Below are positions 26,731 through 58,699 of a DNA stretch of 64,000 nucleotides, piece after piece. The first letter of the stretch is position 1. The number at the start of each line of letters is the position of its first letter. The stretch lies in NCBI GenBank assembly GCA_012729265.1, contig JAAYDL010000060.1:3015-67014 (forward strand), written 5' to 3'. Below the pieces are notes generated by a model that saw only the letters and a program-made list of their open reading frames with translations, ran no database searches and was not told the origin of the DNA. Made by a program: the position numbers and the translations under genes. Origin of the DNA: Lentisphaerota bacterium (GTDB taxonomy: Bacteria > Verrucomicrobiota > Kiritimatiellia > Kiritimatiellales > Pontiellaceae).

Positions 26731-26792
26731 AATACACGAACGTGGGTAAGGCAGTAATTCTCTTTTCGTGTGGTTCGTGTATTTCGTGGTCC
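26731..26792. repeat. Degenerate 9-mer-periodic hairpin element (CACGAA family)
   Basis: AATACACGAA...TTTCGTGTGGTTCGTGTATTTCGTGGT; right arm nearly identical to the right arm of the 44737-44804 element. Confidence 0.75.
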
Positions 26793-42452: not shown

Positions 42453-43538
42453 ATGTTATACGACGTACCCGTACATTTAGGTGAGCGCTCCTATCGCATT
42501 ACGATTGGAGCGGGAATTATGGACACCCTCGGCCCGCGCTGTTCCGAGGTTGGACTGAAGGGCAAGTGTCTGATTATTACCGACGAAAACGTCGGCGGAT
42601 TATATGCCAAAACGGCCAAGCGATCGCTGGAGGCCGCCGGTTTTTCGGCGGCGCTGGAGACGCTTCCGGCGGGCGAGCAGACGAAATGCGGCGAGCAGGT
42701 GTTTAAGCTCTACAGCCGCTGCGTGGAGGCGGGGCTGGACCGCAAATCGTTCATTGTCGCACTCGGCGGCGGCGTGATGGGCGATCTGGCGGGCTATGTG
42801 GCGGCCACCTATTTGAGAGGCATTCCGTTTGTTCAGGTGCCGACCTCGCTGCTGGCGATGGTCGACAGCTCGGTGGGCGGAAAGACCGGGGTGAATCTGC
42901 CGGAGGGAAAAAATCTGGTCGGCGCATTTTATCAGCCCGAGCTGGTGCTGGCTGATCTGGAGACGCTCCGCACGCTTCCGCAGCGCGAATACCGCGCCGG
43001 GCTGGCCGAGGTAGTGAAATACGGCATTATTTATGACGCACCGTTTTTTGCGCTGCTGGAGGAAAACATTGCTCCGCTCGCGGATGTAGAAAATACAGAG
43101 CTGCTGGCCAAGGTGGTCGGACGCTGCTGCGAAATTAAGGCCGAGGTGGTGGCGCAGGATGAACGCGAAGGCGGACTGCGCGCGATTCTGAACTTCGGCC
43201 ATACGGCGGGTCACGCGCTGGAAAAGGTGGCGGGCTACGGCGAATATGTACACGGTGAAGGCGTCGCAATCGGCTCCGTTTTTGCCGCGCGCGCCTCGGT
43301 GGCGCTGACGGGACTTGCTCAGGCGGAGTGCGATCGGATTGAGCAACTGTTTGCGAATCTCGGTTTGCCGGTCCGCGCACCGGAATACGGCTGGGCCGAT
43401 TTGCGGGCGGCGTTGTCGGTCGATAAAAAAACCGTCGGCGGCATGCCCAAGTTTGTACTCGCCTCGGCCATCGGAACGGTTTCGTTCGGGGAAGAGGTTC
43501 CCGAGGAGCTAATGGAAACAATCTGGAAAAAATTATAA
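42453..43538 (+). CDS. aroB: 3-dehydroquinate synthase
   Basis: ALGGGVMGDLAG, PTSLLAMVDSSVGGKTG, LNFGHTAGHALE, HGEGVAIG. Confidence 0.97.
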   Translation: MLYDVPVHLGERSYRITIGAGIMDTLGPRCSEVGLKGKCLIITDENVGGLYAKTAKRSLEAAGFSAALETLPAGEQTKCGEQVFKLYSRCVEAGLDRKSFIVALGGGVMGDLAGYVAATYLRGIPFVQVPTSLLAMVDSSVGGKTGVNLPEGKNLVGAFYQPELVLADLETLRTLPQREYRAGLAEVVKYGIIYDAPFFALLEENIAPLADVENTELLAKVVGRCCEIKAEVVAQDEREGGLRAILNFGHTAGHALEKVAGYGEYVHGEGVAIGSVFAARASVALTGLAQAECDRIEQLFANLGLPVRAPEYGWADLRAALSVDKKTVGGMPKFVLASAIGTVSFGEEVPEELMETIWKKL

Positions 43539-43599
43539 CCACGGAAGACACCGAATACACAGAAAGTTGAGTTCCGTGTGTTCGGTGTATTCTGTGGTT
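43537..43599. repeat. 9-mer-periodic hairpin starting in the aroB stop codon
   Basis: AACCACGGAAGACACCGAATACACAGAA ... TTCCGTGTGTTCGGTGTATTCTGTGGTT (28-nt arms). Confidence 0.85.
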
Positions 43600-43607
43600 C
43601 AATCACA

Positions 43608-44738
43608 ATGCAGGATCGTGAAGCATATATTGTTCTGAATATGATCGACGGGCTGGGGCCGGTGAGCGTCCGGCGGCTGGTCGAGCGCCTCGGAACACCC
43701 AAAGCGATTCTGGAAGCCGACCGCGATACGCTGATGGAAGCGCATGGCGTCGGCGAAAAAATGGCGCTCAAGATTATCGTTCAGCGCGATCAACTCGACC
43801 CCGAGACCGAGATTAATAAGGCGGCCGACGAGGGGGCGCGGATTATCACGCAGCTGGACGATGAATATCCCGAGGCGCTGAAGAGCATTCATGATCCGCC
43901 GCTGGCACTCTATGTGCGCGGATCGCTGCTGCCGAGCGATGCCAAGGCGCTGGGCATTGTCGGCTCGCGTTCAACCAGCCATTACGGCTTGTCCGCTGCA
44001 GATCGGCTGGCCTATCAGCTGGCGCAGACGGGCTTTACGGTGGTGAGCGGACTGGCGCGCGGAACGGATACAGCGGCGCACAGCGGAGCACTTAAAGGCA
44101 AGGGCCGAACGATTGCGGTGCTCGGCGGTGCGATCGACTGCCTCTACCCGCCGGAGAATGACGGGCTGGCGGCCAAGATTGCCAACCACGGCGCAGTGAT
44201 CAGCGAATACCCGATGGGGCGGCAGGTGGATCGAATGACGTTTCCGTACCGAAACCGTATTATCAGCGGGCTGAGCATGGGCGTGCTGCTGATTGAATCG
44301 ACCGTGAAAGGCGGCTCAATGCATACGATCGATGCCGCGATGGAACAGGGCCGAACCGTCTTTGCACTGCCGGGGCGAATTGATATGCCCGGCGCACGCG
44401 GCCCGCATCGTTTGATTAAAAACGGCGCAAAATTAGTTGAATCGCTGGACGATATTTTGGAGGAGTTTGAGTTTTTGATTCCTGAAGCGGAGCGTCAGGC
44501 GCCGGCGGCGGAGACCGCAGCGCGGCCCGACGTGCCGTTGACGGAGGCGGAAACTAAAATTGTAGAAGCGCTCTGGGGCGAGGCACTCGACGTCGACTCG
44601 CTGGCGCGCGCGGTTGGGATGAAAAGCTACGAACTCAGCGGACTGCTGCTGGGCCTCGAAATGAAACGCGTAGTCTGTATGCGCCCCGGCCGGATGGTTG
44701 AACTGGCGGATGATTTAAGAACAGGATTTAGGAGCTAA
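43608..44738 (+). CDS. dprA: DNA-processing protein DprA
   Basis: IHDPPLALYVRG, IVGSR, VSGLARGTD, FPYRNRIISG, C-terminal winged helix. Confidence 0.95.
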   Translation: MQDREAYIVLNMIDGLGPVSVRRLVERLGTPKAILEADRDTLMEAHGVGEKMALKIIVQRDQLDPETEINKAADEGARIITQLDDEYPEALKSIHDPPLALYVRGSLLPSDAKALGIVGSRSTSHYGLSAADRLAYQLAQTGFTVVSGLARGTDTAAHSGALKGKGRTIAVLGGAIDCLYPPENDGLAAKIANHGAVISEYPMGRQVDRMTFPYRNRIISGLSMGVLLIESTVKGGSMHTIDAAMEQGRTVFALPGRIDMPGARGPHRLIKNGAKLVESLDDILEEFEFLIPEAERQAPAAETAARPDVPLTEAETKIVEALWGEALDVDSLARAVGMKSYELSGLLLGLEMKRVVCMRPGRMVELADDLRTGFRS

Positions 44739-44804
44739 CCACGAAATACACAAAATACACGAAACAGGTGGATGGTTTTCGTGTGGTTCGTGTCTTTCGT
44801 GGTT
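44737..44804. repeat. 9-mer-periodic hairpin starting in the dprA stop codon
   Basis: AACCACGAAATACACAAAATACACGAAA ... TTTCGTGTGGTTCGTGTCTTTCGTGGTT. Confidence 0.85.
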
Positions 44805-44824
44805 CATAACAGTAGGGAATTGAG

Positions 44825-47377: not shown

Positions 47378-47416
47378 CTATTCAACAGAAGACCGCAAAG
47401 ATCGCGAAGAGTAAAA

Positions 47417-48040: not shown

Positions 48041-48146
48041 ACACCAAGCCACAAAGATCCTAAAGCATACCCTTCGCGACCTTTGCGTCCTTCTGTAAAA
48101 AAAATCAGTGTCCATTAGTGTTAATCAGTGGTTCAAAAATTCCGAC

Positions 48147-49221: not shown

Positions 49222-49298
49222 GCAGCCATAGCTCAATTGGATAGAGCACCTGACTACGAATCAGGAGGTTGCAGGTTCGATTCCTGCTGGCTGCGCCA
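49222..49298 (+). tRNA. tRNA-Arg (ACG)
   Basis: Acceptor GCAGCCA/TGGCTGC + G-CCA; D-arm AGCTCAATTGGATAGAGC; anticodon stem CCTGA-CTACGAA-TCAGG; T-loop GGTTCGATTCC. Confidence 0.97.
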
Positions 49299-49308
49299 CT
49301 TTTTTCAC

Positions 49309-49346
49309 AACCCTTGTATGTCCGGTAACTACAGGGGTTTTTGTTT
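49309..49346 (+). terminator. Hairpin plus T-tract after tRNA-Arg
   Basis: AACCCTTGTA...TACAGGGGTT followed by T-rich sequence. Confidence 0.6.
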
Positions 49347-49400
49347 GTCCTAACGTCGCTTTTTATGGCCCACCACTCCGCCTCGTTCTCGAAATTCTAT

Positions 49401-49425
49401 CGCAGGCATCCTTGCCTACCTCGCT
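49401..49425 (+). repeat. REP-like hairpin, left copy of a direct repeat bracketing the type I RM operon
   Basis: CGCAGGCATCCTTGCCTACCTCGCT versus CGCAGGCATCCT-GCCTGCCTCGCT at 58639-58662. Confidence 0.7.
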
Positions 49426-49488: not shown

Positions 49489-49730
49489 GCCCATCGCCCA
49501 CCCCATTTTTGTAACAAAATTTGCATCGAGCGCTTTCAGCATCTAAAGCGCTTCTTCTCCCTGTACCACTCACCACGCGTTAATTTTGTAAACCTTTCAA
49601 ACATCAGTAAACCGTGGCGGCTAATAGTTCAGATTGTTTCACCGCGGGCTTTAACTCATTGATAAAATGGCGTAAAAAGTCCCCTTCATTGCAAAACAGC
49701 ATCAAAAACGGTTTCAAAATAAGGGTGAGT

Positions 49731-52034
49731 ATGGATCAGGCAACGCATAACAAGATTGTTTCTTTCATCTGGGGAATTGCGGACGATGTGTTGCGCGACC
49801 TTTTCAAGCGGGGTAAATACCCGGATGTGATTCTGCCGATGTGCGTGATCCGTCGCATGGACGCTGTGCTGGAGCCGACCAAGCAGGCGGTGCTGGATGC
49901 CAAGAAGATGCTGGACTCGGCGCAGATCACGGAACAGCGGGCCGCGTTGTGCAGTGCGGCCGGTCAGGCGTTTTACAACACATCCAAGTTTACCCTGCGC
50001 GATCTGAAGTCGCGCGGCAGCCAACAGCAACTGCTGGCCGATTTTGAGGATTACCTGAACGGATTCTCCCAGAACGTTCAGGACATTATTGAAAACTTTA
50101 AGTTTCGGAATCAGATTCCGACGCTGTCCAAGGCCGATGCGCTGGGCACCTTGATCAACAAATTTCTCGACCCGGAAATCGATCTTACGCCAGCAGGCAT
50201 CGACAATCATGCCATGGGCACGGTCTTTGAAGAGCTGGTGCGCAAGTTTAACGAGGAAAACAACGAAGAGGCCGGTGAGCACTGGACGCCGCGCGATGCC
50301 GTGCGGCTGATGGCCAACCTGATTTTCCTGCCGATACAGGATCAGCTCAGGTCCGGTTCCTATCTGCTGTATGACTGTGCTTGCGGAACCGGCGGTATGC
50401 TGACCGTGGCCGAAGAAACGCTGGCGGAGATCGGGAAAAAGCATGGGCTGGAGATTCGCAGCCATTTGTACGGGCAGGAGATCAACCCGGAAACCTATGC
50501 GATCTGCAAAGCCGACATGCTGCTGAAAGGCGAGGGCGAAAATGCCGACCATATTGTCGGCGGCGCGGAGTGGTCGACGCTCGCGCACGATGCCTTCCCG
50601 GCGCAGGAATTCGACTTCATGCTTGCCAATCCTCCCTATGGGAAGAGCTGGAAAAAAGATCTGGAGACGATGGGCGGAAAAGACGGCATGAACGATCCGC
50701 GCTTCAAGGTGATGCATCAGGGAGAAGAACTCTCTTTGATCACTCGCTCCAGCGATGGGCAAATGCTGTTCCTGGCCAACATGGCGTCCAAGATGAACGA
50801 TCAGTCGGCGCTGGGCAGTCGCATTGCCGAGGTGCATAACGGCAGCTCGCTCTTTACCGGCGATGCCGGGCAGGGCGAAAGCAACATCCGCCGCTGGCTG
50901 ATCGAAAACGACCAGGTTGAGGCCATTGTGGCCTTGCCGCTCAACCTCTTCTACAACACCGGCATTGCCACCTATGTCTGGGTGCTGACTAACCGCAAGC
51001 CGGAGCATCGCAAGGGCAAGGTGCAGCTCATCGACGCCTCGCAATGGTTCAAGCCACTGCGCAAAAACCTCGGCAAAAAGAACTGCGAACTGTCACCGGA
51101 TGACATCGACCGTATCTGCAAAACATTTTTGGATTTCGAAGAAACCGAGCAGTCAAAAATCTTCCCCAACGAACATTTCGGTTACTGGAAGGTGCGCGTT
51201 GAGCGCCCCGTCCGCCTGCACAGCCAGTTGACGCGCAAGGCGATTGAAACCCTGCGCTTTGCATCCGGCGACGAAGAGTTGCGCACCGAACTCCACGCCC
51301 GATTTGGTGAAAAACTGTTCAGCGGGTTTGCTGAGGTGGAGGCCGAAGTGGCGCGGTTTTTGTCCGACATGTCCGACGGGGATGACGATTCAGAGGAAGA
51401 AGAAACCCAAAAAGGCCTGCCCGAGAAGCGGAAGAAAAAGCTGCTCGACGCCAAAACCTGGGAGCGCGACGGTCGGCTGGCTGAGACCGCCGAGCTGCTG
51501 CGCGACCGGTTGGGCGACGCTCTCTTCGAGGATTTCAACCTTTTCCGCGAGGCGGTAGCAAAGGTACTCAAGGCCGAAGGCGTCAAGCTGCCCGCCGCCG
51601 ATCTCAAGCTGATACTACGCACCGTGAGCTGGCGGGTGGAGAATGCTCCGCCGGTCATTGATAAATTTCTAAAGGAAGAACCGGATGTTCTGTACGGTCG
51701 CTATCCGCTTTCGGTTTTGAGTCAATCGGAAATCAGCAATCGGAAATCGGCAATCCGAAGCGTCAGCTTTGAGCCTGAAACCGACCTGCGCGACCACGAG
51801 CAGGTGCCGCTGCTCGAAGAGGGCGGCATCGAAGCCTTTATCCGCCGCGAGGTGCTGCCCTACACGCCGGATGCCTGGGTTGATCCCTCCGCCACCAAGA
51901 TCGGCTACGAAGTCAGCTTTACCCGCCACTTCTACAAGCCGCCGGAACTGCGGTCGCTCGAAGCCATCGCCGCCGACATCAAGGCGCTTGAAAACGAGAC
52001 CGAGGGACTGCTCGAAGAGATTGTGGGAGGTTGA
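49731..52034 (+). CDS. hsdM: Type I RM methyltransferase subunit
   Basis: FIWGIADDVLR, GEHWTPR, YDCACGTGGML, GQEIN, LANPPYG, FYNTGIATY. Confidence 0.95.
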   Translation: MDQATHNKIVSFIWGIADDVLRDLFKRGKYPDVILPMCVIRRMDAVLEPTKQAVLDAKKMLDSAQITEQRAALCSAAGQAFYNTSKFTLRDLKSRGSQQQLLADFEDYLNGFSQNVQDIIENFKFRNQIPTLSKADALGTLINKFLDPEIDLTPAGIDNHAMGTVFEELVRKFNEENNEEAGEHWTPRDAVRLMANLIFLPIQDQLRSGSYLLYDCACGTGGMLTVAEETLAEIGKKHGLEIRSHLYGQEINPETYAICKADMLLKGEGENADHIVGGAEWSTLAHDAFPAQEFDFMLANPPYGKSWKKDLETMGGKDGMNDPRFKVMHQGEELSLITRSSDGQMLFLANMASKMNDQSALGSRIAEVHNGSSLFTGDAGQGESNIRRWLIENDQVEAIVALPLNLFYNTGIATYVWVLTNRKPEHRKGKVQLIDASQWFKPLRKNLGKKNCELSPDDIDRICKTFLDFEETEQSKIFPNEHFGYWKVRVERPVRLHSQLTRKAIETLRFASGDEELRTELHARFGEKLFSGFAEVEAEVARFLSDMSDGDDDSEEEETQKGLPEKRKKKLLDAKTWERDGRLAETAELLRDRLGDALFEDFNLFREAVAKVLKAEGVKLPAADLKLILRTVSWRVENAPPVIDKFLKEEPDVLYGRYPLSVLSQSEISNRKSAIRSVSFEPETDLRDHEQVPLLEEGGIEAFIRREVLPYTPDAWVDPSATKIGYEVSFTRHFYKPPELRSLEAIAADIKALENETEGLLEEIVGG
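51724..51758 (+). repeat. Heptamer tandem repeat (AATCGGA-like x5) inside the hsdM coding sequence
   Basis: AATCGGA AATCAGC AATCGGA AATCGGC AATCCGA, read through as QSEISNRKSAIRS. Confidence 0.8.
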
Positions 52035-52036
52035 TC

Positions 52037-53068
52037 ATGAGAGATGCGAACAATCCCATGAAGTCGGACGAATCATTTGCCGAAATAGTCGGTCTGATTC
52101 AATCTGCCAAGGAACGAGCCTTTCGGGCGGTCAACACGGAGTTGGTTAATCTCTATTGGCAGGTGGGGGAAGTCATCTCCCGTAGAATTGAGTCGGATGG
52201 ATGGGGCAAAAGCACGATTCAATCGTTGAGTCATTTTATAAAGCACACACAACCGGATTTGCGTGGCTTCTCTGCTCAAAACCTATGGAGAATGCGCCAG
52301 TTTTATGAGGTTTACAGCCAAAATGAAAAACTCTCACCACTGGTGAGAGAATTGCCTTGGACGCATCACATGCTTATTTTGGGGCAGACCAAACTGGAGG
52401 AAGAGCGGGAATTCTACATTCGTATGGCGATTCGCGAAAAATGGTCAAAACGGGAGCTGGATCGGCAGCTGCAAACAGGGCTGTTTCTGCGGGCGGTGGC
52501 CAATCCGCCAAAAGTCGCACCACTGGTGCGACAATTGTATCCATCTGCGGGTGAGTTGTTTAAGGATGTTTATGCGCTGGAATTCCTTGGTTTGTCTGCC
52601 GCCCATGATGAATCCGACCTGCACAGCGGACTTTTGCGGAATCTGGGGCGGTTTCTCTCTGAATTGGGGCGCGACTTTTGTTTTGTCGGCTCCGAGTATC
52701 CGCTGCAGGTGGGCACTCAGGACTTTTCGCTTGATCTGCTCTTTTTCCACCGCGGGCTCAACTGCCTGGTCGCCATCGAGCTCAAAGCGCGGCGTTTTGA
52801 GCCTGACGATCTTGGCAAGCTCAACTTTTATCTCGAAGCACTCGAGCGCGATCACCGCAAGGAGCACGAAAACCCGCCCGTCGGGCTGCTGCTCTGCGCC
52901 ACCAAAGACAACGAGGTTGTCGAATATGCCCTCAGCCGCTCGCTCTCTCCGGCCATGGTCGCTGAATACCAAACCCAGCTCCCCGCCAAAGAACTGCTCG
53001 CCGCCAAGCTCCACGAGTTGTATCAGCTCCTCGCGCCGGAAAATGAAGGAATAGATCATGGACAGTAA
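52037..53068 (+). CDS. YhcG/DUF1016 PD-(D/E)xK nuclease-domain protein
   Basis: RAVNTELVNLYWQVG, GFSAQNLWRMRQF, LPWTHH, DLLFFHRGLNCLVAIELK, GKLNFY. Confidence 0.92.
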   Translation: MRDANNPMKSDESFAEIVGLIQSAKERAFRAVNTELVNLYWQVGEVISRRIESDGWGKSTIQSLSHFIKHTQPDLRGFSAQNLWRMRQFYEVYSQNEKLSPLVRELPWTHHMLILGQTKLEEEREFYIRMAIREKWSKRELDRQLQTGLFLRAVANPPKVAPLVRQLYPSAGELFKDVYALEFLGLSAAHDESDLHSGLLRNLGRFLSELGRDFCFVGSEYPLQVGTQDFSLDLLFFHRGLNCLVAIELKARRFEPDDLGKLNFYLEALERDHRKEHENPPVGLLLCATKDNEVVEYALSRSLSPAMVAEYQTQLPAKELLAAKLHELYQLLAPENEGIDHGQ

Positions 53069-53261
53069 AATCGCTACACAAACGCAACGCCGCTTTGATG
53101 ATTTTTTAACCGCGCTTCGTCGTACGATCGAGTCCAATGAGACAATGACTTATTCGTCTTCTGATCATTTTCGTGGCGTCACGAAAATGGTCGACCTCTA
53201 CCGCGCACTCGCCCGGCAAATCTGGAATCCCGAAACCCTCCTGCGCGAGGTGCCGTCATGA
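53058..53261 (+). pseudogene. Short ORF, possible DinD-like N-terminal fragment
   Basis: DHFRGVTKMV motif within a 67-aa ORF overlapping both neighbours. Confidence 0.35.
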
Positions 53262-54679
53262 TCGCCGACCTTAAACCCTATCCTGAATACAAAGACTCCG
53301 GCCTGCCGTGGGTGGAAGAACTCCCACAAGGTTGGATTGTTCGGCGCGGACGTGGGGTTTTTGAATCGATCGATGTTCGGTCGAAGACGGGAAAAGAAGA
53401 ACTGCTCACTGTGTCATCACAGGACGGCGTTCGGCTGCGCAGTTCAAAAGCTGTTACAATGTTTCAGGCCAAGTCCTATGTGGGGCATAAGCTTTGTTGG
53501 CCGGGTGACCTTGTGGTCAACAGCTTGTGGGCATGGGCAACCGGGCTTGGATTTTCGCGGCACTATGGAATTGTGAGTACGGCCTATGGGGTTTATCGAC
53601 CGCGAGATGAGCATAAAGCAAAGTGGCGTTTCCTCGATTATTTATTGCGAAGCTATGCATACAAGTGGGAGTTCCAAACACGGTCGCGCGGGATTTGGAT
53701 ATCCCGACTCCAGCTAACGGATTGGTATTTTTTTGATATGCCGATCCTTTTGCCGCCTGAAGAAGATGCGGAAGCGATTGTGCGTTTTTTGGATCATGCG
53801 AATGCGAAGATTGACCGCTATGTGCGGGCGAAGAAAAAGCTGATCAAACTGCTCAACGAGCAGAAGCAGGCCATCATCCACCGTGCCGTCACCCGCGGCC
53901 TCGATCCGAATGCCCCCCTCAAAGACTCCGGCATCCCAATGCTCGGCCAGATTCCGGACGACTGGAAAACGATCCCAATTAAGCGCGTTGCAACTGTATT
54001 GAATGGGTTTGCTTTTTCGAGCGAGATCTACACCGATTCTGGGGTACCGCTCATTCGTATTGGAGATGTGAAGAGCAGCGGTACTGTTGATATTGAACAC
54101 GCTGTGAAGTTGCCGGGAGGTTTCTTGGCTTCTCATTCGTTCGTCGAAATCAAGAATGGCGACCTTGTGATGGCAATGACAGGAGCGACAATCGGAAAGG
54201 TGGCCAAATACAGCCATGACTGCCCTTCACTTCTAAACCAGCGTGTTTGTGCATTTCGTTGCCTATCTGGACGAGTGGTGCAGGAATACCTTTTTCTTCT
54301 GCTCTCATCCCAGTTGTATCTTCAGCAGGTGCTGATGGCATGCTACGGCGGTGCTCAACCTAACATTTCGGACACAACTTTAGCAGGTTTTAAGATGCCA
54401 ATAGCTCCATTCGATCTTCAAAAAGAAATCGTTTCCTCTGTGGTTCGCGAGACTCGCAGTTTAACCGCCGCCATCACCCACGCTGAGCGCGAGATCGAGC
54501 TATTGAACGAATACCGGACGCGGCTGGTGGCGGATGTGGTGACGGGCAAGCTGGATGTGCGCGAGGCGGCGGAGGTGTTGCCGGAGGAGCTGGTTGTGGA
54601 GTCGGACGGGGCGGACTCGACGGACGAAACCGACTTGTCCGATGATGCCGACGAAGTTTTACAGGAGGAGGAGTCATGA
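53258..54679 (+). CDS. hsdS: Type I RM specificity subunit
   Basis: LKPYPEYKDSGLPW; two TRDs joined by IVRFLD..AKID...LLNEQKQAIIHRAVTRGL; LLNEYRTRLVADVVTGKLDVR. Confidence 0.93.
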   Translation: MIADLKPYPEYKDSGLPWVEELPQGWIVRRGRGVFESIDVRSKTGKEELLTVSSQDGVRLRSSKAVTMFQAKSYVGHKLCWPGDLVVNSLWAWATGLGFSRHYGIVSTAYGVYRPRDEHKAKWRFLDYLLRSYAYKWEFQTRSRGIWISRLQLTDWYFFDMPILLPPEEDAEAIVRFLDHANAKIDRYVRAKKKLIKLLNEQKQAIIHRAVTRGLDPNAPLKDSGIPMLGQIPDDWKTIPIKRVATVLNGFAFSSEIYTDSGVPLIRIGDVKSSGTVDIEHAVKLPGGFLASHSFVEIKNGDLVMAMTGATIGKVAKYSHDCPSLLNQRVCAFRCLSGRVVQEYLFLLLSSQLYLQQVLMACYGGAQPNISDTTLAGFKMPIAPFDLQKEIVSSVVRETRSLTAAITHAEREIELLNEYRTRLVADVVTGKLDVREAAEVLPEELVVESDGADSTDETDLSDDADEVLQEEES

Positions 54680-55470
54680 GCGCTCCGGGAAGTCCGCTGA
54701 TGCCGCATGGCGGGTATGAAAAGCTGCGGGCGTACCGGGTGGCGGAAGTGGTGTATGACGCAACGGTGGTGTTCTGCGACCGGTTCATTGATAAGCGGTC
54801 GCGCACGCACGACCAGATGGTGCAGGCGGCGCGCAGCGGCGTACGCAATATCAGCGAGGGCAGCGGCGCGGGGGCGACGTCGAAGAAGACGGAGATCCAT
54901 CTGACGAATGTGGCGCGGGCGAGCCTGTCGGATGAGCTGCTGAAGGATTATCGAAGTTTTCTGGTGCAGCGCGGTCTGCCGGTTTGGGATAAGGATTCAC
55001 CGAGGGCGCTGGCGATGCGGGAGCGGCTGCAACACGAGGAGGTGGACCGCCTTCCGCCGGAGAGAGAGGGCGTTGTGCGTCTGACGGGGCTGAATGGTCT
55101 GACCGATTTTGTGGCCAAGGCGTCGCCGGAGCTGGCGGCGAATGCGATGCTGTGCGCGGTAAATCAGGCGGCCTATCTGCTGCGTCGGCTGATGGAGCAG
55201 CAGACGCAGGAGTTTGTGGAGGGCGGCGGTTTTACGGAGCGGCTTTATACAGCGCGGACGCAGGCGCGTGCCGCCGGGGCGGCCGATGCGCCGACCTGCC
55301 CGCTGTGCGGCGAGGCGATGCGAAAACGGACGGCGGGCAAGGGCGCAAATGCGGGAAAAGCGTTCTGGGGCTGCACCGGCTATCCGGCGTGCAGGGGAGT
55401 AGTAAATATTTCTGAAAAGACTGACGTGTCCGACCCGCCCGACCGATCTAACGATGGAGAGAAAGCATGA
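54676..55470 (+). CDS. Four-helix-bundle protein with suffix domain and C4 zinc finger
   Basis: HGGYEKL, DQMVQAARSGVRNISEG, LTNVARASL.ELL.DY, EGGGFTERLY..R, CPLCG...FWGCTGYPACRG. Confidence 0.9.
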   Translation: MSAPGSPLMPHGGYEKLRAYRVAEVVYDATVVFCDRFIDKRSRTHDQMVQAARSGVRNISEGSGAGATSKKTEIHLTNVARASLSDELLKDYRSFLVQRGLPVWDKDSPRALAMRERLQHEEVDRLPPEREGVVRLTGLNGLTDFVAKASPELAANAMLCAVNQAAYLLRRLMEQQTQEFVEGGGFTERLYTARTQARAAGAADAPTCPLCGEAMRKRTAGKGANAGKAFWGCTGYPACRGVVNISEKTDVSDPPDRSNDGEKA

Positions 55471-58400
55471 GTACCGATATCAGTGAAAAAGGCCTGGAAA
55501 CCCTTATCGTGAATCACATGACGGGGGTCACCGGACTTGAACTTCCGGATCGCATCAACGATACGCCGGACTCCATTGTCCAGCAAAAGGCGGGCGGCAG
55601 CGGCTGGTTTGCCGGCAGCCCGAAAGAATACGACCGCAGCTATGCGATCGATGCGGTTCAGCTCTTTACCTTTTTGCAGGCCACTCAGCCGGAGACCGTC
55701 AAAAAACTGGGTGTAGCGAGCTATTGGAAATCGAAGGACATGAACCGCCAAAGGTTTCTGGCCCGTGTTTCAACGGAGATCGGCAAGCGCGGTATCATCG
55801 ATGTGCTGCGCAAGGGCGTTGACCACGGCCCGCTGCATTTTGACCTGTTTTACGGCACACCGTCGGAGGGCAATGCCAAGGCGGTGGAACTGCATGCCCA
55901 AAACCGGTCCTCGATTACGCGCCAGTTGGCCTACAGCACCGATGAGACGCGCCGTGCGCTTGACCTGTGCATCTTTATTAACGGTCTGCCGATTGCCACC
56001 TTCGAGCTGAAAAACAGCCTGACCAAGCAGACGGTGGATGATGCAATCGAGCAGTACAAGCGCGACCGAGATCCGCGCGAAAAGCTCTTTGGATTCGGGC
56101 GCTGTGTGGTTCATTTCGCGGTGGACGATGCCGAGGTGCATATGTGCACCGAGCTGAAAGGCAAAGCTTCCTGGTTCCTGCCCTTCAACAAGGGGTGGAA
56201 CGACGGCGCGGGCAATCCGCCCAACCCGGACGGCCTCAAAACCGATTATCTTTGGAAGGAAGTGCTCACGCCGTCCAGCCTCACCAATATCCTGGAAAAC
56301 TATGCCCAGATTGTGGAGGAGGAGAAAAAGACCAAGAATCCGAAGTCCGGCAAGGTGACCCAGCGAAAGGTGCGGAAGCAGATCTTTCCGCGCTATCACC
56401 AGCTCGATGTGGTCCGGAAAACATTGGCGGACACGCGGCAGACCGGTGTCGGAAAACGCTATCTGATTCAGCATTCCGCCGGCAGCGGCAAGTCCAACTC
56501 CATCGCCTGGCTCGCCCATCAGCTCATTGCTGTTAAGAAAAGCGGCAAGGAGGTGTTTGATACGGTGATCGTGATTACTGACCGCGTGTTGCTCGATAAG
56601 CAGCTGCAGGCGACCATCAAGCAGTTTATGCAAGTTAAGTCTACCGTAGGCCATGCCAAAAGCTCCGGCGACCTGCGCAAATTTATTGAGGAGGGTAAAA
56701 AGATCGTGGTCTCCACGGTGCAGAAGTTCCCGTTCATCCACAAAGAAATATCCATGGAGAGCGGGCGCACGTTCGCGATTGTCATCGATGAAGCCCATTC
56801 GAGCCAAGGCGGTAAAACCACCGGGGCCATGCATGAGGCGCTGGGCGACCCGGAAGACACGGTGAACGATGTGCTGGAAAAGCAGATGGCGGCGAAAAAG
56901 ATGCTCAAGAACGCCAGCTATTTTGCCTTCACGGCCACGCCGAAGAACAAGACGTTGGAACTGTTTGGCGAGGCGTTGCCTGCTGATGCGGAAGGAAAGG
57001 TTTCGCATAAGCCTTTCCATTGCTACACCATGAAGCAGGCGGTAGAAGAGGGCTTTATCTTAGATGTGCTCGCCAACTACTCGCCGGTACACAGCTACTA
57101 CAAGCTGGTCAAAAAGATTGAGGATGATCCCGAGTTCGATACCAAAAAGGCGCAGAAAAAGCTGCGCAAGTATGTGGAGAGCCATGACCACGCCATTCGG
57201 CTGAAGGCCGAGATCATGATTGACCACTTTCATTCCCAGGTGATGGCAAAGGGTAAGATCGGCGGGCAGGCGCGGGCCATGGTGGTCTGCAACGGGATTG
57301 AGCGGGCGCTCCAGTATTTCGAGGCGTTCAATGCCTATCTCACGGAACGCAAAAGTCCCTACAAAGCGATTGTCGCCTTTTCCGGAGAAAAGGAGTTTCG
57401 CGGTAAAATAGCGACCGAGGCATCGCAGAATGGCTTTCCGGGCAATGATATTGCGGAAACCTTCCAGGAGGATCCGTACCGCTTCCTGATCTGCGCCGAC
57501 AAGTTCCAGACCGGCTATGACGAACCGTTGCTGCATACGATGTATGTGGATAAGCCGCTTGCCGGGATCAAGGCCGTGCAGACGCTGTCCCGCCTCAACC
57601 GTGCCCATCCCCAGAAGCACGACTGCTTCGTACTGGATTTCCAGAATAACAGCGAGACGGTTACCGAGGCATTCCAGGCCTATTACCGGACCACGCTGCT
57701 GGCCGATGAAACCGATCCCGATAAACTGCATGACCTTCAAACATCTCTGGACAACGCGCAGGTCTATTCGCCGGAGCAGATCGAGCAGATCGTGAACCTG
57801 TTCCTCGGCGGTGCCGACCGCAATCAGCTCGATCCGATTCTCGACCAGTGCGTAGCGGTTTATATGGAACAGCTCGATGAAGATGGTCAGGTCGATTTCA
57901 AAGGCAAAGCAAAAGCATTTTGCCGGACCTACGATTTCCTTGCGTCAATCCTGCCGTATTCGAGCCCGAAGTGGGAAAAGCTCTCCATCTTTCTCAACCT
58001 GCTGGTGCCGAAGCTGCCGGCCCCGAAAGAAGAGGACCTGTCGAAGGGGATTTTGAAGACCATCGATATGGACAGTTACCGCGTGGAAAAACAGGCGGAG
58101 ATGAAAATTGCGCTGGAGGACTCGGACGCAGAGATCAATCCAGTGCCGGTTGAGGGGGGCGGTTTTAAGCGTGAGCCGGAACTGGATCGCCTCAGCAATA
58201 TTCTCAAAACCTTCAACGAACAGTTCGGAACGCTCTTTACGGATGCCGACCGGGTGGTAAAACGTATCCGCGAGGACATCGCCCCGCAGGTCGCCGCTGA
58301 TGCGGCCTTCAAAAACGCCAAGGCAAACACGCCTCATACCGCTCGGATGGCTCACGATCAGGCTCTCAGCAAAGTTATGCAGGTATTGCTGACCGAAGAC

Positions 58401-58493
58401 ACGCAGGTCTATAAGCAGTTTGTGGAAAATGAATCCTTCCGCCGTTTTGTCAGCGATATGGTCTTTGAGCTGACGAGCGGGGACGCGGCCTAG
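55467..58493 (+). CDS. hsdR: Type I RM restriction subunit
   Basis: FELKNSLT, FAVD, FLPFNKG, QHSAGSGKS, IDEAH, FTATPK, KFQTGYDEP, VQTLSRLNR. Confidence 0.95.
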   Translation: MSTDISEKGLETLIVNHMTGVTGLELPDRINDTPDSIVQQKAGGSGWFAGSPKEYDRSYAIDAVQLFTFLQATQPETVKKLGVASYWKSKDMNRQRFLARVSTEIGKRGIIDVLRKGVDHGPLHFDLFYGTPSEGNAKAVELHAQNRSSITRQLAYSTDETRRALDLCIFINGLPIATFELKNSLTKQTVDDAIEQYKRDRDPREKLFGFGRCVVHFAVDDAEVHMCTELKGKASWFLPFNKGWNDGAGNPPNPDGLKTDYLWKEVLTPSSLTNILENYAQIVEEEKKTKNPKSGKVTQRKVRKQIFPRYHQLDVVRKTLADTRQTGVGKRYLIQHSAGSGKSNSIAWLAHQLIAVKKSGKEVFDTVIVITDRVLLDKQLQATIKQFMQVKSTVGHAKSSGDLRKFIEEGKKIVVSTVQKFPFIHKEISMESGRTFAIVIDEAHSSQGGKTTGAMHEALGDPEDTVNDVLEKQMAAKKMLKNASYFAFTATPKNKTLELFGEALPADAEGKVSHKPFHCYTMKQAVEEGFILDVLANYSPVHSYYKLVKKIEDDPEFDTKKAQKKLRKYVESHDHAIRLKAEIMIDHFHSQVMAKGKIGGQARAMVVCNGIERALQYFEAFNAYLTERKSPYKAIVAFSGEKEFRGKIATEASQNGFPGNDIAETFQEDPYRFLICADKFQTGYDEPLLHTMYVDKPLAGIKAVQTLSRLNRAHPQKHDCFVLDFQNNSETVTEAFQAYYRTTLLADETDPDKLHDLQTSLDNAQVYSPEQIEQIVNLFLGGADRNQLDPILDQCVAVYMEQLDEDGQVDFKGKAKAFCRTYDFLASILPYSSPKWEKLSIFLNLLVPKLPAPKEEDLSKGILKTIDMDSYRVEKQAEMKIALEDSDAEINPVPVEGGGFKREPELDRLSNILKTFNEQFGTLFTDADRVVKRIREDIAPQVAADAAFKNAKANTPHTARMAHDQALSKVMQVLLTEDTQVYKQFVENESFRRFVSDMVFELTSGDAA

Positions 58494-58634: not shown

Positions 58635-58699
58635 GTACCGCAGGCATCCTGCCTGCCTCGCTCTGCTCCCCCGTACAGCCTGCGCTACGCGCCGGCTCA
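58635..58699 (+). repeat. Pair of GTAC-led REP-like hairpins
   Basis: GTAC-C-GCAGGCA-TCC-TGCCTGC and GTAC-AGCCTGCGC-TAC-GCGCCGGCT, each preceded by CCCC. Confidence 0.65.

Follow-up and report, generated by a model that had tools for sequence, protein, structure and literature searches.

The window analysed here, a stretch of 64,000 nucleotides (nt) from a Lentisphaerota bacterium (assembly GCA_012729265.1, contig JAAYDL010000060.1), holds six same-strand genes between positions 49614 and 58493, in the order hsdM, YhcG/DUF1016, an open reading frame (ORF) of 67 aa, hsdS, a gene for a 264-aa protein with a predicted four-helix bundle, and hsdR (Table 1). With hsdM, hsdS and hsdR tightly linked on one strand this is a type I restriction-modification (R-M) operon, and its neighbouring genes abut or overlap throughout. 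Our subject is the 264-aa gene together with the short arrays of 9-bp units at its two ends, where they are translated as the tails of HsdS and of the 264-aa protein itself. From the window alone the case is modest. With the homologous loci described below, the partnership of gene and array is real and apparently undescribed; no description of the array was found in the literature searched for the family accessions, for S23p/Avd terms and for the repeat sequence.

Table 1. Genes, arrays and other features of the operon, with window positions
Feature	Position	Strand	Basis
hsdM, 806 aa, first gene of the operon	49614..52034	+	Pfam N6_Mtase 1.2e-53, HsdM_N 1.7e-22
Third short array, in the hsdM inter-domain linker: GTCCGACAT GTCCGACGG GGATGAC, translated FL-SDM-SDG-DD	51362..51386		two-unit search
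YhcG/DUF1016 accessory gene, PD-(D/E)xK nuclease family	52031..53068	+	Pfam YhcG_C 4.5e-54, DUF1016_N 8.5e-45
67-aa ORF	53058..53261	+	weak matches alone: DinD-like fragment, PDC-S13
hsdS, 473 aa, acidic C-terminal tail	53258..54679	+	Pfam Methylase_S 7.9e-17
5' array of the 264-aa gene, six decayed GTCNGAC-NN units inside the hsdS tail	54601..54654		sequence; array scan
Spacer with Shine-Dalgarno-like GGAGGAGGAG (translated QEEE), 5' of the ATGA overlap	54655..54675	+	read from sequence
264-aa protein: split four-helix bundle, suffix helix, C4 zinc ribbon, disordered tail (predicted)	54676..55470	+	TIGR04258, TIGR02436, PF01396; AlphaFold2
Internal array-like stretch: GTCTGACGG GGCTGAATG GTCTGAC	55079..55103		two-unit and repeat searches
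Topoisomerase-I-type zinc ribbon, residues ~206-240 (predicted)	55291..55395	+	Pfam, alignment, AlphaFold2
3' array, three decayed units, in the disordered tail of the 264-aa protein	55419..55445		sequence; array scan
hsdR, 1008 aa, start overlapping the previous stop (ATGA)	55467..58493	+	Pfam SWI2_SNF2, ResIII, HSDR_N, T1R_D3-like

The suffix gene and its arrays in the window

By its sequence the 795-bp gene is a catalogued member of the TIGR04258 family (four helix bundle suffix), and the predicted structure of its product is a bundle like those of Avd and the 23S rRNA intervening-sequence proteins, with helix 4 taken from the suffix domain. The TIGR04258 profile scores 67.8 bits against a cut-off of 40 and aligns over its full model length to a 49-residue domain (residues 151-199). 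TIGR02436 is passed with 26.5 bits (cut-off 24) through profile positions 4-66 alone, and PF05635 stays under its cut-off (24.3 against 33.8 bits); the split bundle leaves membership of these two families marginal at the sequence level. In the AlphaFold2 model (mean predicted local distance difference test score, pLDDT, 71.5; core helices above 85) helices span residues 18-37, 43-63 and 70-98, and after a poorly ordered insert the suffix helix (151-183) closes the bundle. Foldseek places the model in the bundle fold, the top matches being chains of 2GSC, the pentameric four-helix-bundle protein Xcc0516 (probability 1.00, target template modelling (TM) score 0.84-0.86), with 2RLD (BT_0352) also matched; a phmmer search of the protein against all PDB chains gave no match at E up to 10. 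The protein also belongs to PF01396 (Zn_ribbon_Top1; 32.1 bits, cut-off 32): Cys208, 211, 233 and 239 are invariant across 25 homologues, and two beta-hairpin strands are predicted for the ribbon. The tail, residues 240-264, is predicted to be disordered (pLDDT below 50). Scans with Pfam, NCBIfam and PADLOC detected no nuclease, HUH, recombinase or polymerase domain, and no PADLOC defence-system model matches the protein. There are more than 8000 relatives, with 60-80% identity across Verrucomicrobiota, Planctomycetota, Lentisphaerae, Desulfobacterota and others, and many are labelled 'four helix bundle suffix protein' or 'restriction system protein'. The genome itself has 17 TIGR02436 matches, and the long suffix type is represented by eight open frames (225-274 aa). 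In three paralogues (C316:24-797(-), C372:3310-4065 and C230:6238-7008(-)) another 9-periodic unit, ATCCGnCCA / CCGATC, sits in inter-domain linkers (translated TDPTNPSNPSD) and just past the stop codon.

In related loci the arrays are head-to-tail runs of a 9-bp unit, GTCNGAC with two free bases after it. The 5' array of the window runs from 54601 through the units GTCGGACGG GGCGGACTC GACGGACGA AACCGACTT GTCCGATGA TGCCGACGA and is translated from 54602 as SDG ADS TDE TDL SDD ADE, the end of HsdS; the 3' array, from 55419, consists of GACTGACGT GTCCGACCC GCCCGACCG, translated TDV SDP PDR. Both had been reported in the initial annotation of this stretch, made from the sequence alone, and both are present as described. 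So is the inverted likeness that it saw between their ends: GTCGGACGGGGCGGAC (54601-54616) matches the reverse complement of GTCCGACCCGCCCGAC (55428-55443) at 14/16 positions, a level reached in 0/700 random placements, in the window, of two 100-nt segments 790 nt apart (maximum 13). What does not stand is the reading of these ends as the inverted arms of a hairpin. The GTCNGAC heptamer is its own reverse complement, so that any two arrays look inverted, and this explains the apparent arms. When the variable positions of upstream and downstream arrays were compared with shuffling at the 22 homologous loci that have both, they were complementary at 0.326 against 0.324 for the shuffled positions, and with no complementarity beyond the core no specific stem or hairpin is supported.

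A two-unit search with GTCNGACNNGTCNGAC, allowing at most 2 mismatches, gave 11 matches in the window against 2.5 expected, and 8/11 lie in this operon; when at least three units with at most one mismatch per core are required, the whole 3.4-Mb assembly contains exactly two arrays, those at the 5' and 3' ends of the gene. Tandem Repeats Finder did not pick up the gene's arrays because the variable positions differ between units, and a general repeat search ranked the pair below 25 other inverted pairs, so that the signal lies in the phased core and not in overall similarity. Within the window units the GAC (Asp) half is better kept than the GTC half. At the place of the third array, the hsdM linker of L231, one of the two closest relatives of the operon (L231 and L232, both metagenome contigs), holds six units (SDW SDE SDL PDP SDG SDE), including a Trp codon, of which the window keeps two; no array was found in HsdM of operons without the four-helix-bundle gene. 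The internal stretch at 55079-55103 is translated, in another frame, as a near-invariant RLTGLNGLT that is also found in L231 and L232, and it is possibly a former array that became fixed in the protein. At the 3' position relatives have 3-12 clean units, for example five perfect ones in the L231 tail, and the arrays of L231 and L232 are in general better preserved than those of the window. The window arrays are worn copies of the family element, decayed relics in an imported island, and may no longer be functional.

The genome also has 9-nt-periodic hairpins of its own at gene ends (43537-43610, 44735-44805, 47394-47409 / 48072-48087 and 26731-26792). Their units, like CACGAAATA / CGCAAAGAT, are non-palindromic, with mirrored arms that make true hairpins, and they form a repeat family separate from GTCNGAC; a link between the gene's arrays and the CACGAAATA hairpins was considered and rejected, the units being different. 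The suggestion that the locus is a second filled cassette of that 9-mer hairpin system is not supported: the unit there is another one, and GTCNGAC arrays occur nowhere else in the genome.

The repeat, the gene family and the history of the operon

The array is a DNA- or RNA-level element, and the SDxSDx tails are not protein motifs. Tails of the form SDxSDxSDx, variable in length, occur throughout the family in the homologue alignment, and arrays are translated wherever they overlap ORFs, usually as Ser-Asp-x. Upstream neighbours often end in the same repeat or in another frame of it (TGQTGQ, PTSPTG, GRIGRI), and arrays are also found in non-coding flanks and in other frames, read GQT/GRT/GPT or VRx/VGx. 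Codon use was compared in runs defined by the protein alone, (SDx)>=3, in genes of the 80 homologues (43 runs, 181 units). Within the runs Ser is TCN in 181/181 units, whereas AGY makes up 48% of Ser outside them; Asp is GAC in 94% against 53% outside, and codons for x end in G in 83% against 36%, the x residues being those with NNG codons, including Met and elsewhere Trp. This bias fits conservation of GTCNGAC and not selection for a Ser-Asp-x peptide, which argues for an element at the nucleic-acid level.

The homologue set comprises 80 loci that carry the gene family, 758 kb in total, in which at least three units were counted as an array. An upstream array, defined as one within 250 nt 5' of the family gene, is present at 37/80 loci, an array at the 3' end at 31/80, arrays on both sides at 22/80 and arrays inside the gene at 45/80; elsewhere in the 758 kb there are 9 in total. 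From the end of the upstream array to a conserved GGY motif the median distance is 56 nt (interquartile range 35-66, n=32); in the window it is 57 nt, close to this median, which makes the hsdS-tail array the canonical 5' array belonging to the gene. Family-wide, in relatives from many phyla, the upstream array ends a median of 25 nt 5' of the ATG. Inner arrays lie, almost always in the SDx frame, at two constant sites (residues ~118 and ~185-204), which are the linkers between bundle and suffix and between suffix and zinc ribbon. An unbiased period-9 consensus is GTCnGACnn in nearly all homologues of at least 50% identity, and mostly (G)ATCnGnCn or GATCnGAC in a subfamily of 43-49% identity. 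In a phylum sample of 201 genomes, where an exact three-unit match was called an array, 26 genomes have such arrays and the reversed pattern, used as a control, is found in 1/201. That sample has one close homologue (G038:C1:42530-43312, 75%), and the three exact array matches of its genome, which overlap one another (42545-42587), fall precisely on the 3' end of this gene; across the 201 genomes identity to the window protein gave no clean threshold parting array-bearing from array-free genomes. The family carries, at fixed positions, an array that is otherwise more widely dispersed.

Two kinds of occurrence lie outside the family. In some Bacteroidales, Acidobacteriota and others (L096, L123, L127, L182) array pairs bracket single ordinary genes, namely purD, extracytoplasmic function (ECF) sigma factor, dinB and PIN toxin genes, and there the arrays behave like a general intergenic repeat. 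In Verrucomicrobiota (L089, L090, L111, L112, L187) in-frame arrays occupy the same loop of DUF1549-like proteins, which reads 'DLTGLPP-SDxSDxSDxSD-YIEKLL..SP.YGE', and in-frame copies are thus tolerated in unrelated genes.

For the history of the operon we used 30 operons of HsdR relatives (L201-L230, 58-77% identity, many phyla); 276 kb of these homologous operons, in which the four-helix-bundle gene is lacking, served as the gene-less comparison. An acidic HsdS tail of 25-35 residues follows 'VVTGKLDVREAA..LP(D/E)E' in 30/30 homologous operons and is still present in L202, L203 and L211, where hsdS overlaps hsdR directly by ATGA. GTCNGAC arrays number zero in the 276 kb, and periodic hsdS tails are found only where the gene follows hsdS, namely in the window, L231, L232, L009 and L025, the 5' array of the window being homologous to the arrays in the L231 and L232 hsdS tails. 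An acidic HsdS tail without DNA periodicity in operons lacking the insert, a pattern named beforehand as one that would speak against a mobile insert, is indeed seen, but the periodic array is limited to gene-bearing operons; with acidic tails everywhere and periodicity only with the gene, acidity is ancestral and protein-level, and the periodicity was overlaid with the gene. No 'empty site', that is, an array-bearing HsdS without the gene, occurs among the 30 homologous operons. The gap between hsdS and hsdR is a general insertion hotspot, filled with 0.6-2.6 kb of varied other genes in about a dozen operons.

In L231 and L232 the hsdS-gene-hsdR order and the ATGA overlaps are kept, and identity to the window is 81% for HsdM, 78-81% for the gene and 76-78% for HsdR; such equal divergence across the operon points to co-inheritance and not to a recent insertion. 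The gene has a GC content of 64% against 52-56% in the other five operon genes. A recent insertion, considered because of this high GC, was rejected, since the conserved end of HsdS is equally GC-rich and L231 and L232 are equally diverged. On a tree of HsdR from 34 operons, whose sampling is biased in that gene-bearing operons were found via the gene itself, the presence of the gene takes at least five gains or losses, so that the gene has been exchangeable over long times. Gene and repeats, which had been proposed as a mobile unit, belong together as one module of patchy presence, cassette-like over evolutionary time, and a recent insertion is not supported. The HsdR family (L201-L230) occurs in more than 10 bacterial phyla and in one Bathyarchaeia metagenome-assembled genome (L217), and this distribution of sequences indicates that it has spread widely by horizontal transfer.

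The ATGA overlaps that had been taken to keep hsdS, insert and hsdR coupled are present at 54676 (hsdS/gene) and 55467 (gene/hsdR), but a third one at 53258 joins the small ORF to hsdS, so that the overlap is a property of the whole operon and not of the insert. The closing Glu-rich codons of hsdS double as the ribosome-binding site of the following gene, and a promoter and terminator scan of the operon gave nothing above background. The YhcG/DUF1016 gene between hsdM and hsdS matches the PADLOC candidate defence family PDC-S02 (2.2e-130); a YhcG gene stands at the matching position in L202, and L231 has none there. A tRNA-Arg gene (49222-49298) lies just 5' of the operon, and near-identical direct repeats (CGCAGGCATCC..TGCC..CCTCGCT) bracket it within 49222-49425 and 58639-58662. 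The repeats suggest an integrated island, which fits GTCNGAC arrays being foreign to the host genome.

Possible roles of the arrays

Our best explanation, to which as a whole we give about an even chance, is that the arrays are a cis element belonging to the family, at whose repeated sites the protein would bind, that they have decayed here and do not border a hairpin cassette, and that the gene is a stable accessory, coupled in translation, of this lineage of type I R-M operons. We propose that the protein would bind the array, each palindrome taking a symmetric pair of subunits, and that the candidate target would be (GTCNGACNN)n, as DNA or as RNA. Autoregulation would follow from such binding, as might some control over read-through into hsdR. 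Within the window, the ancestral acidic tail of HsdS holds the 5' array, the disordered tail of the protein is made by the 3' array, and a third copy lies in an HsdM linker.

In favour of this reading are the family and fold of the protein, the codon-level signature of the arrays, their fixed placement around and within the gene, its stable residence in L231 and L232, and the parallel of RptR. Several points weigh against binding sites of this kind. The window arrays are degenerate, with 1-2 perfect cores per array. With its end ~25 nt from the start codon, the upstream array is nearer than promoter operators usually are, and arrays often fall within coding regions, an arrangement that suits a roadblock or a role at the RNA level just as well. 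RptR, the closest functional parallel that we can offer (see below), has no sequence similarity to the 264-aa protein, and we know of no function for any member of the whole PF05635/TIGR02436 family. In the 201-genome sample the family is encoded in 23/26 array-bearing and 60/175 other genomes; this speaks for the association of array and family, but the odds ratio of 14.7 is uncorrected for phylogeny. A pattern scan of species genomes met arrays in many phyla with a family gene nearby at ~7/120 loci, and some arrays lie between or inside unrelated genes. For this reason the notion that arrays are exclusive to this gene family was rejected, and the array is a wider dispersed element.

More tentatively, and with the balance leaning against it, the arrays and the suffix/zinc-ribbon proteins may form a site-and-reader pair with clade-specific units. 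In this reading arrays would have moved out from the gene to linkers and tails of its neighbours (hsdM, hsdS) and to other parts of the genome, tolerated there in frame as Ser-Asp-x, and in type I R-M operons the pair would serve to control hsdR expression. If true, it would be the first sequence-specific nucleic-acid target for the S23p/Avd-like superfamily. To our knowledge, S23p/Avd four-helix-bundle proteins are among the commonest uncharacterised genes of defence neighbourhoods, and we know of no nucleic-acid target for the free-standing ones. The findings bear on the regulation of accessory genes inside restriction operons. They also mean that a non-coding element can be written into protein ends and linkers (HsdS, HsdM) without harm and, for annotation, that the SDxSDx tails seen here should not be taken as protein motifs.

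Of the alternatives, the one that survives best, unlikely as we hold it to be, is a selfish system in the manner of REP elements and their RAYT genes (repetitive extragenic palindromic sequences and REP-associated tyrosine transposases), in which the protein itself would propagate or maintain dispersed arrays, the gene would be flanked by its own substrate, and arrays would seed the linkers and tails of neighbours. Nearly all array-rich genomes, with tens to ~190 pattern matches, encode the family; the gene lies between two arrays in many contexts; the extra arrays in hsdM and in the hsdS tail are found only in gene-carrying operons; and the in-frame arrays of unrelated proteins, such as the DUF1549-like ones, would be expected of such a system. 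The protein, however, has none of the catalytic domains sought above, the window genome has the gene but no dispersed arrays, the 60 array-free genomes also encode the family, and the variable N positions speak against simple copying and pasting of units.

Two further alternatives are improbable. In the first, the tails would be ordinary acidic low-complexity linkers that owe their period to replication slippage and GC-rich codon bias, the match between the two ends being incidental. That acidic HsdS tails are general in this R-M family, whether or not the gene is there, that the tail of the 264-aa protein is predicted to be disordered, and that decay has spared the GAC half more than the GTC half, which would be the outcome if selection now acted on acidity alone, all fit this reading, but the codon bias of the SDx runs (0/181 AGY Ser, 94% GAC, 83% G) largely refutes it. 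The same array stands in non-coding DNA and in other frames, its units differ at the N positions in a way unlike slippage products, and the gene-less operons have no arrays in spite of their acidic tails. In the second, to which we give just as little weight, the arrays would act on the polycistronic mRNA, in its processing, stability or translational coupling, like the RNase III stems around S23p ORFs. The end of the array beside the ribosome-binding site, ~25 nt 5' of the start codon, the occurrence of arrays within transcribed and coding sequence in operon contexts, and the excised rRNA intervening sequences in which the family's namesake ORFs lie are in keeping with it; against it, upstream and downstream arrays have no complementarity beyond the palindromic core, and the element is strand-symmetric, as is typical of double-stranded DNA sites. 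Finally, the idea that a periodic hairpin captured the gene as a cassette in its loop, as part of one system with the genome's other 9-mer hairpins, is hardly credible: the locally significant 14/16 match and the repeated gain and loss of the gene in the HsdR family would suit it, but those hairpins use a different unit and GTCNGAC arrays are unique to this operon within the genome, the palindromic core explains the inversion and the variable positions do not covary, there is no empty site among the 30 homologous operons, the gene has diverged together with its neighbours, and a Pfam scan found no recombinase in the operon.

Comparison with known systems

PF05635 is S23p, the 23S rRNA intervening-sequence protein, and Avd is a protein of diversity-generating retroelements. 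The window protein resembles the TIGR04258 and TIGR02436 families in that it passes their curated cut-offs and in that its predicted fold superposes on 2GSC (TM 0.85) and 2RLD. It differs from TIGR02436/PF05635 (S23p, Avd) in its split bundle, with helix 4 coming after an insert of ~50 residues, and in the added C4 zinc ribbon and repeat-encoded tail, and its gene is neither in an rRNA gene nor beside a reverse transcriptase, unlike those of S23p and Avd. The descriptions of TIGR04258, TIGR02436 and PF05635 within reach do not mention flanking nonamer arrays.

ORF-bearing 23S rRNA intervening sequences are known from Coxiella and Leptospira, where RNase III stems flank the S23p ORFs. The likeness is that of a gene of the same superfamily between elements of inverted symmetry; in contrast, the window gene has hsdS on one side and hsdR on the other, in an operon with stop/start overlaps, and no flanking stem is supported. 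The S23p ORFs themselves sit in rRNA intervening sequences that are excised (PMC10053308). An integron-like or otherwise hairpin-bounded cassette does not describe the locus, given that there is no covariation, that no recombinase is found in the operon and that the units are unlike the genome's hairpins.

REP elements and bacterial interspersed mosaic elements (BIMEs) are associated with RAYT genes, and Rickettsia palindromic elements insert in frame into genes. As in those systems, the palindromic repeat described here is short, occurs dispersed in some genomes, flanks one gene family and can be tolerated in frame. The differences are that Pfam, NCBIfam and PADLOC scans of the window protein found no HUH/Y1 transposase domain, that the element is a phased tandem 7-bp palindrome with free spacers as against an imperfect hairpin of 20-40 nt, and that the window genome has no dispersed copies, dispersal being met in some other genomes of the phylum.

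The remaining comparison is with RptR, a repressor of Gammaproteobacteria, E. coli among them, that is encoded beside type I R-M islands (PDB 9R2Z; PMC12255303). RptR is a small helical dimer of 79 aa, the product of the first gene of the island, and its site is a tandem series of three 9-bp direct repeats, in each of which a 6-bp palindrome, TAGCTA, takes one dimer; the repeats lie 31-58 bp 5' of its own start codon, and the operon is repressed (PMC12255303). There are 2-5 repeats, upstream only (PMC12255303), whereas in our family arrays also lie inside and after the gene and in neighbouring ORFs, and binding is what we propose by analogy. Homology is not indicated: phmmer against the PDB gave none, and the best folds are 2GSC and 2RLD, not 9R2Z. 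The likeness to RptR is one of arrangement: a type I R-M operon encodes a small helical protein, and tandem palindromic 9-bp repeats, six decayed units in the window, lie just upstream of its gene.

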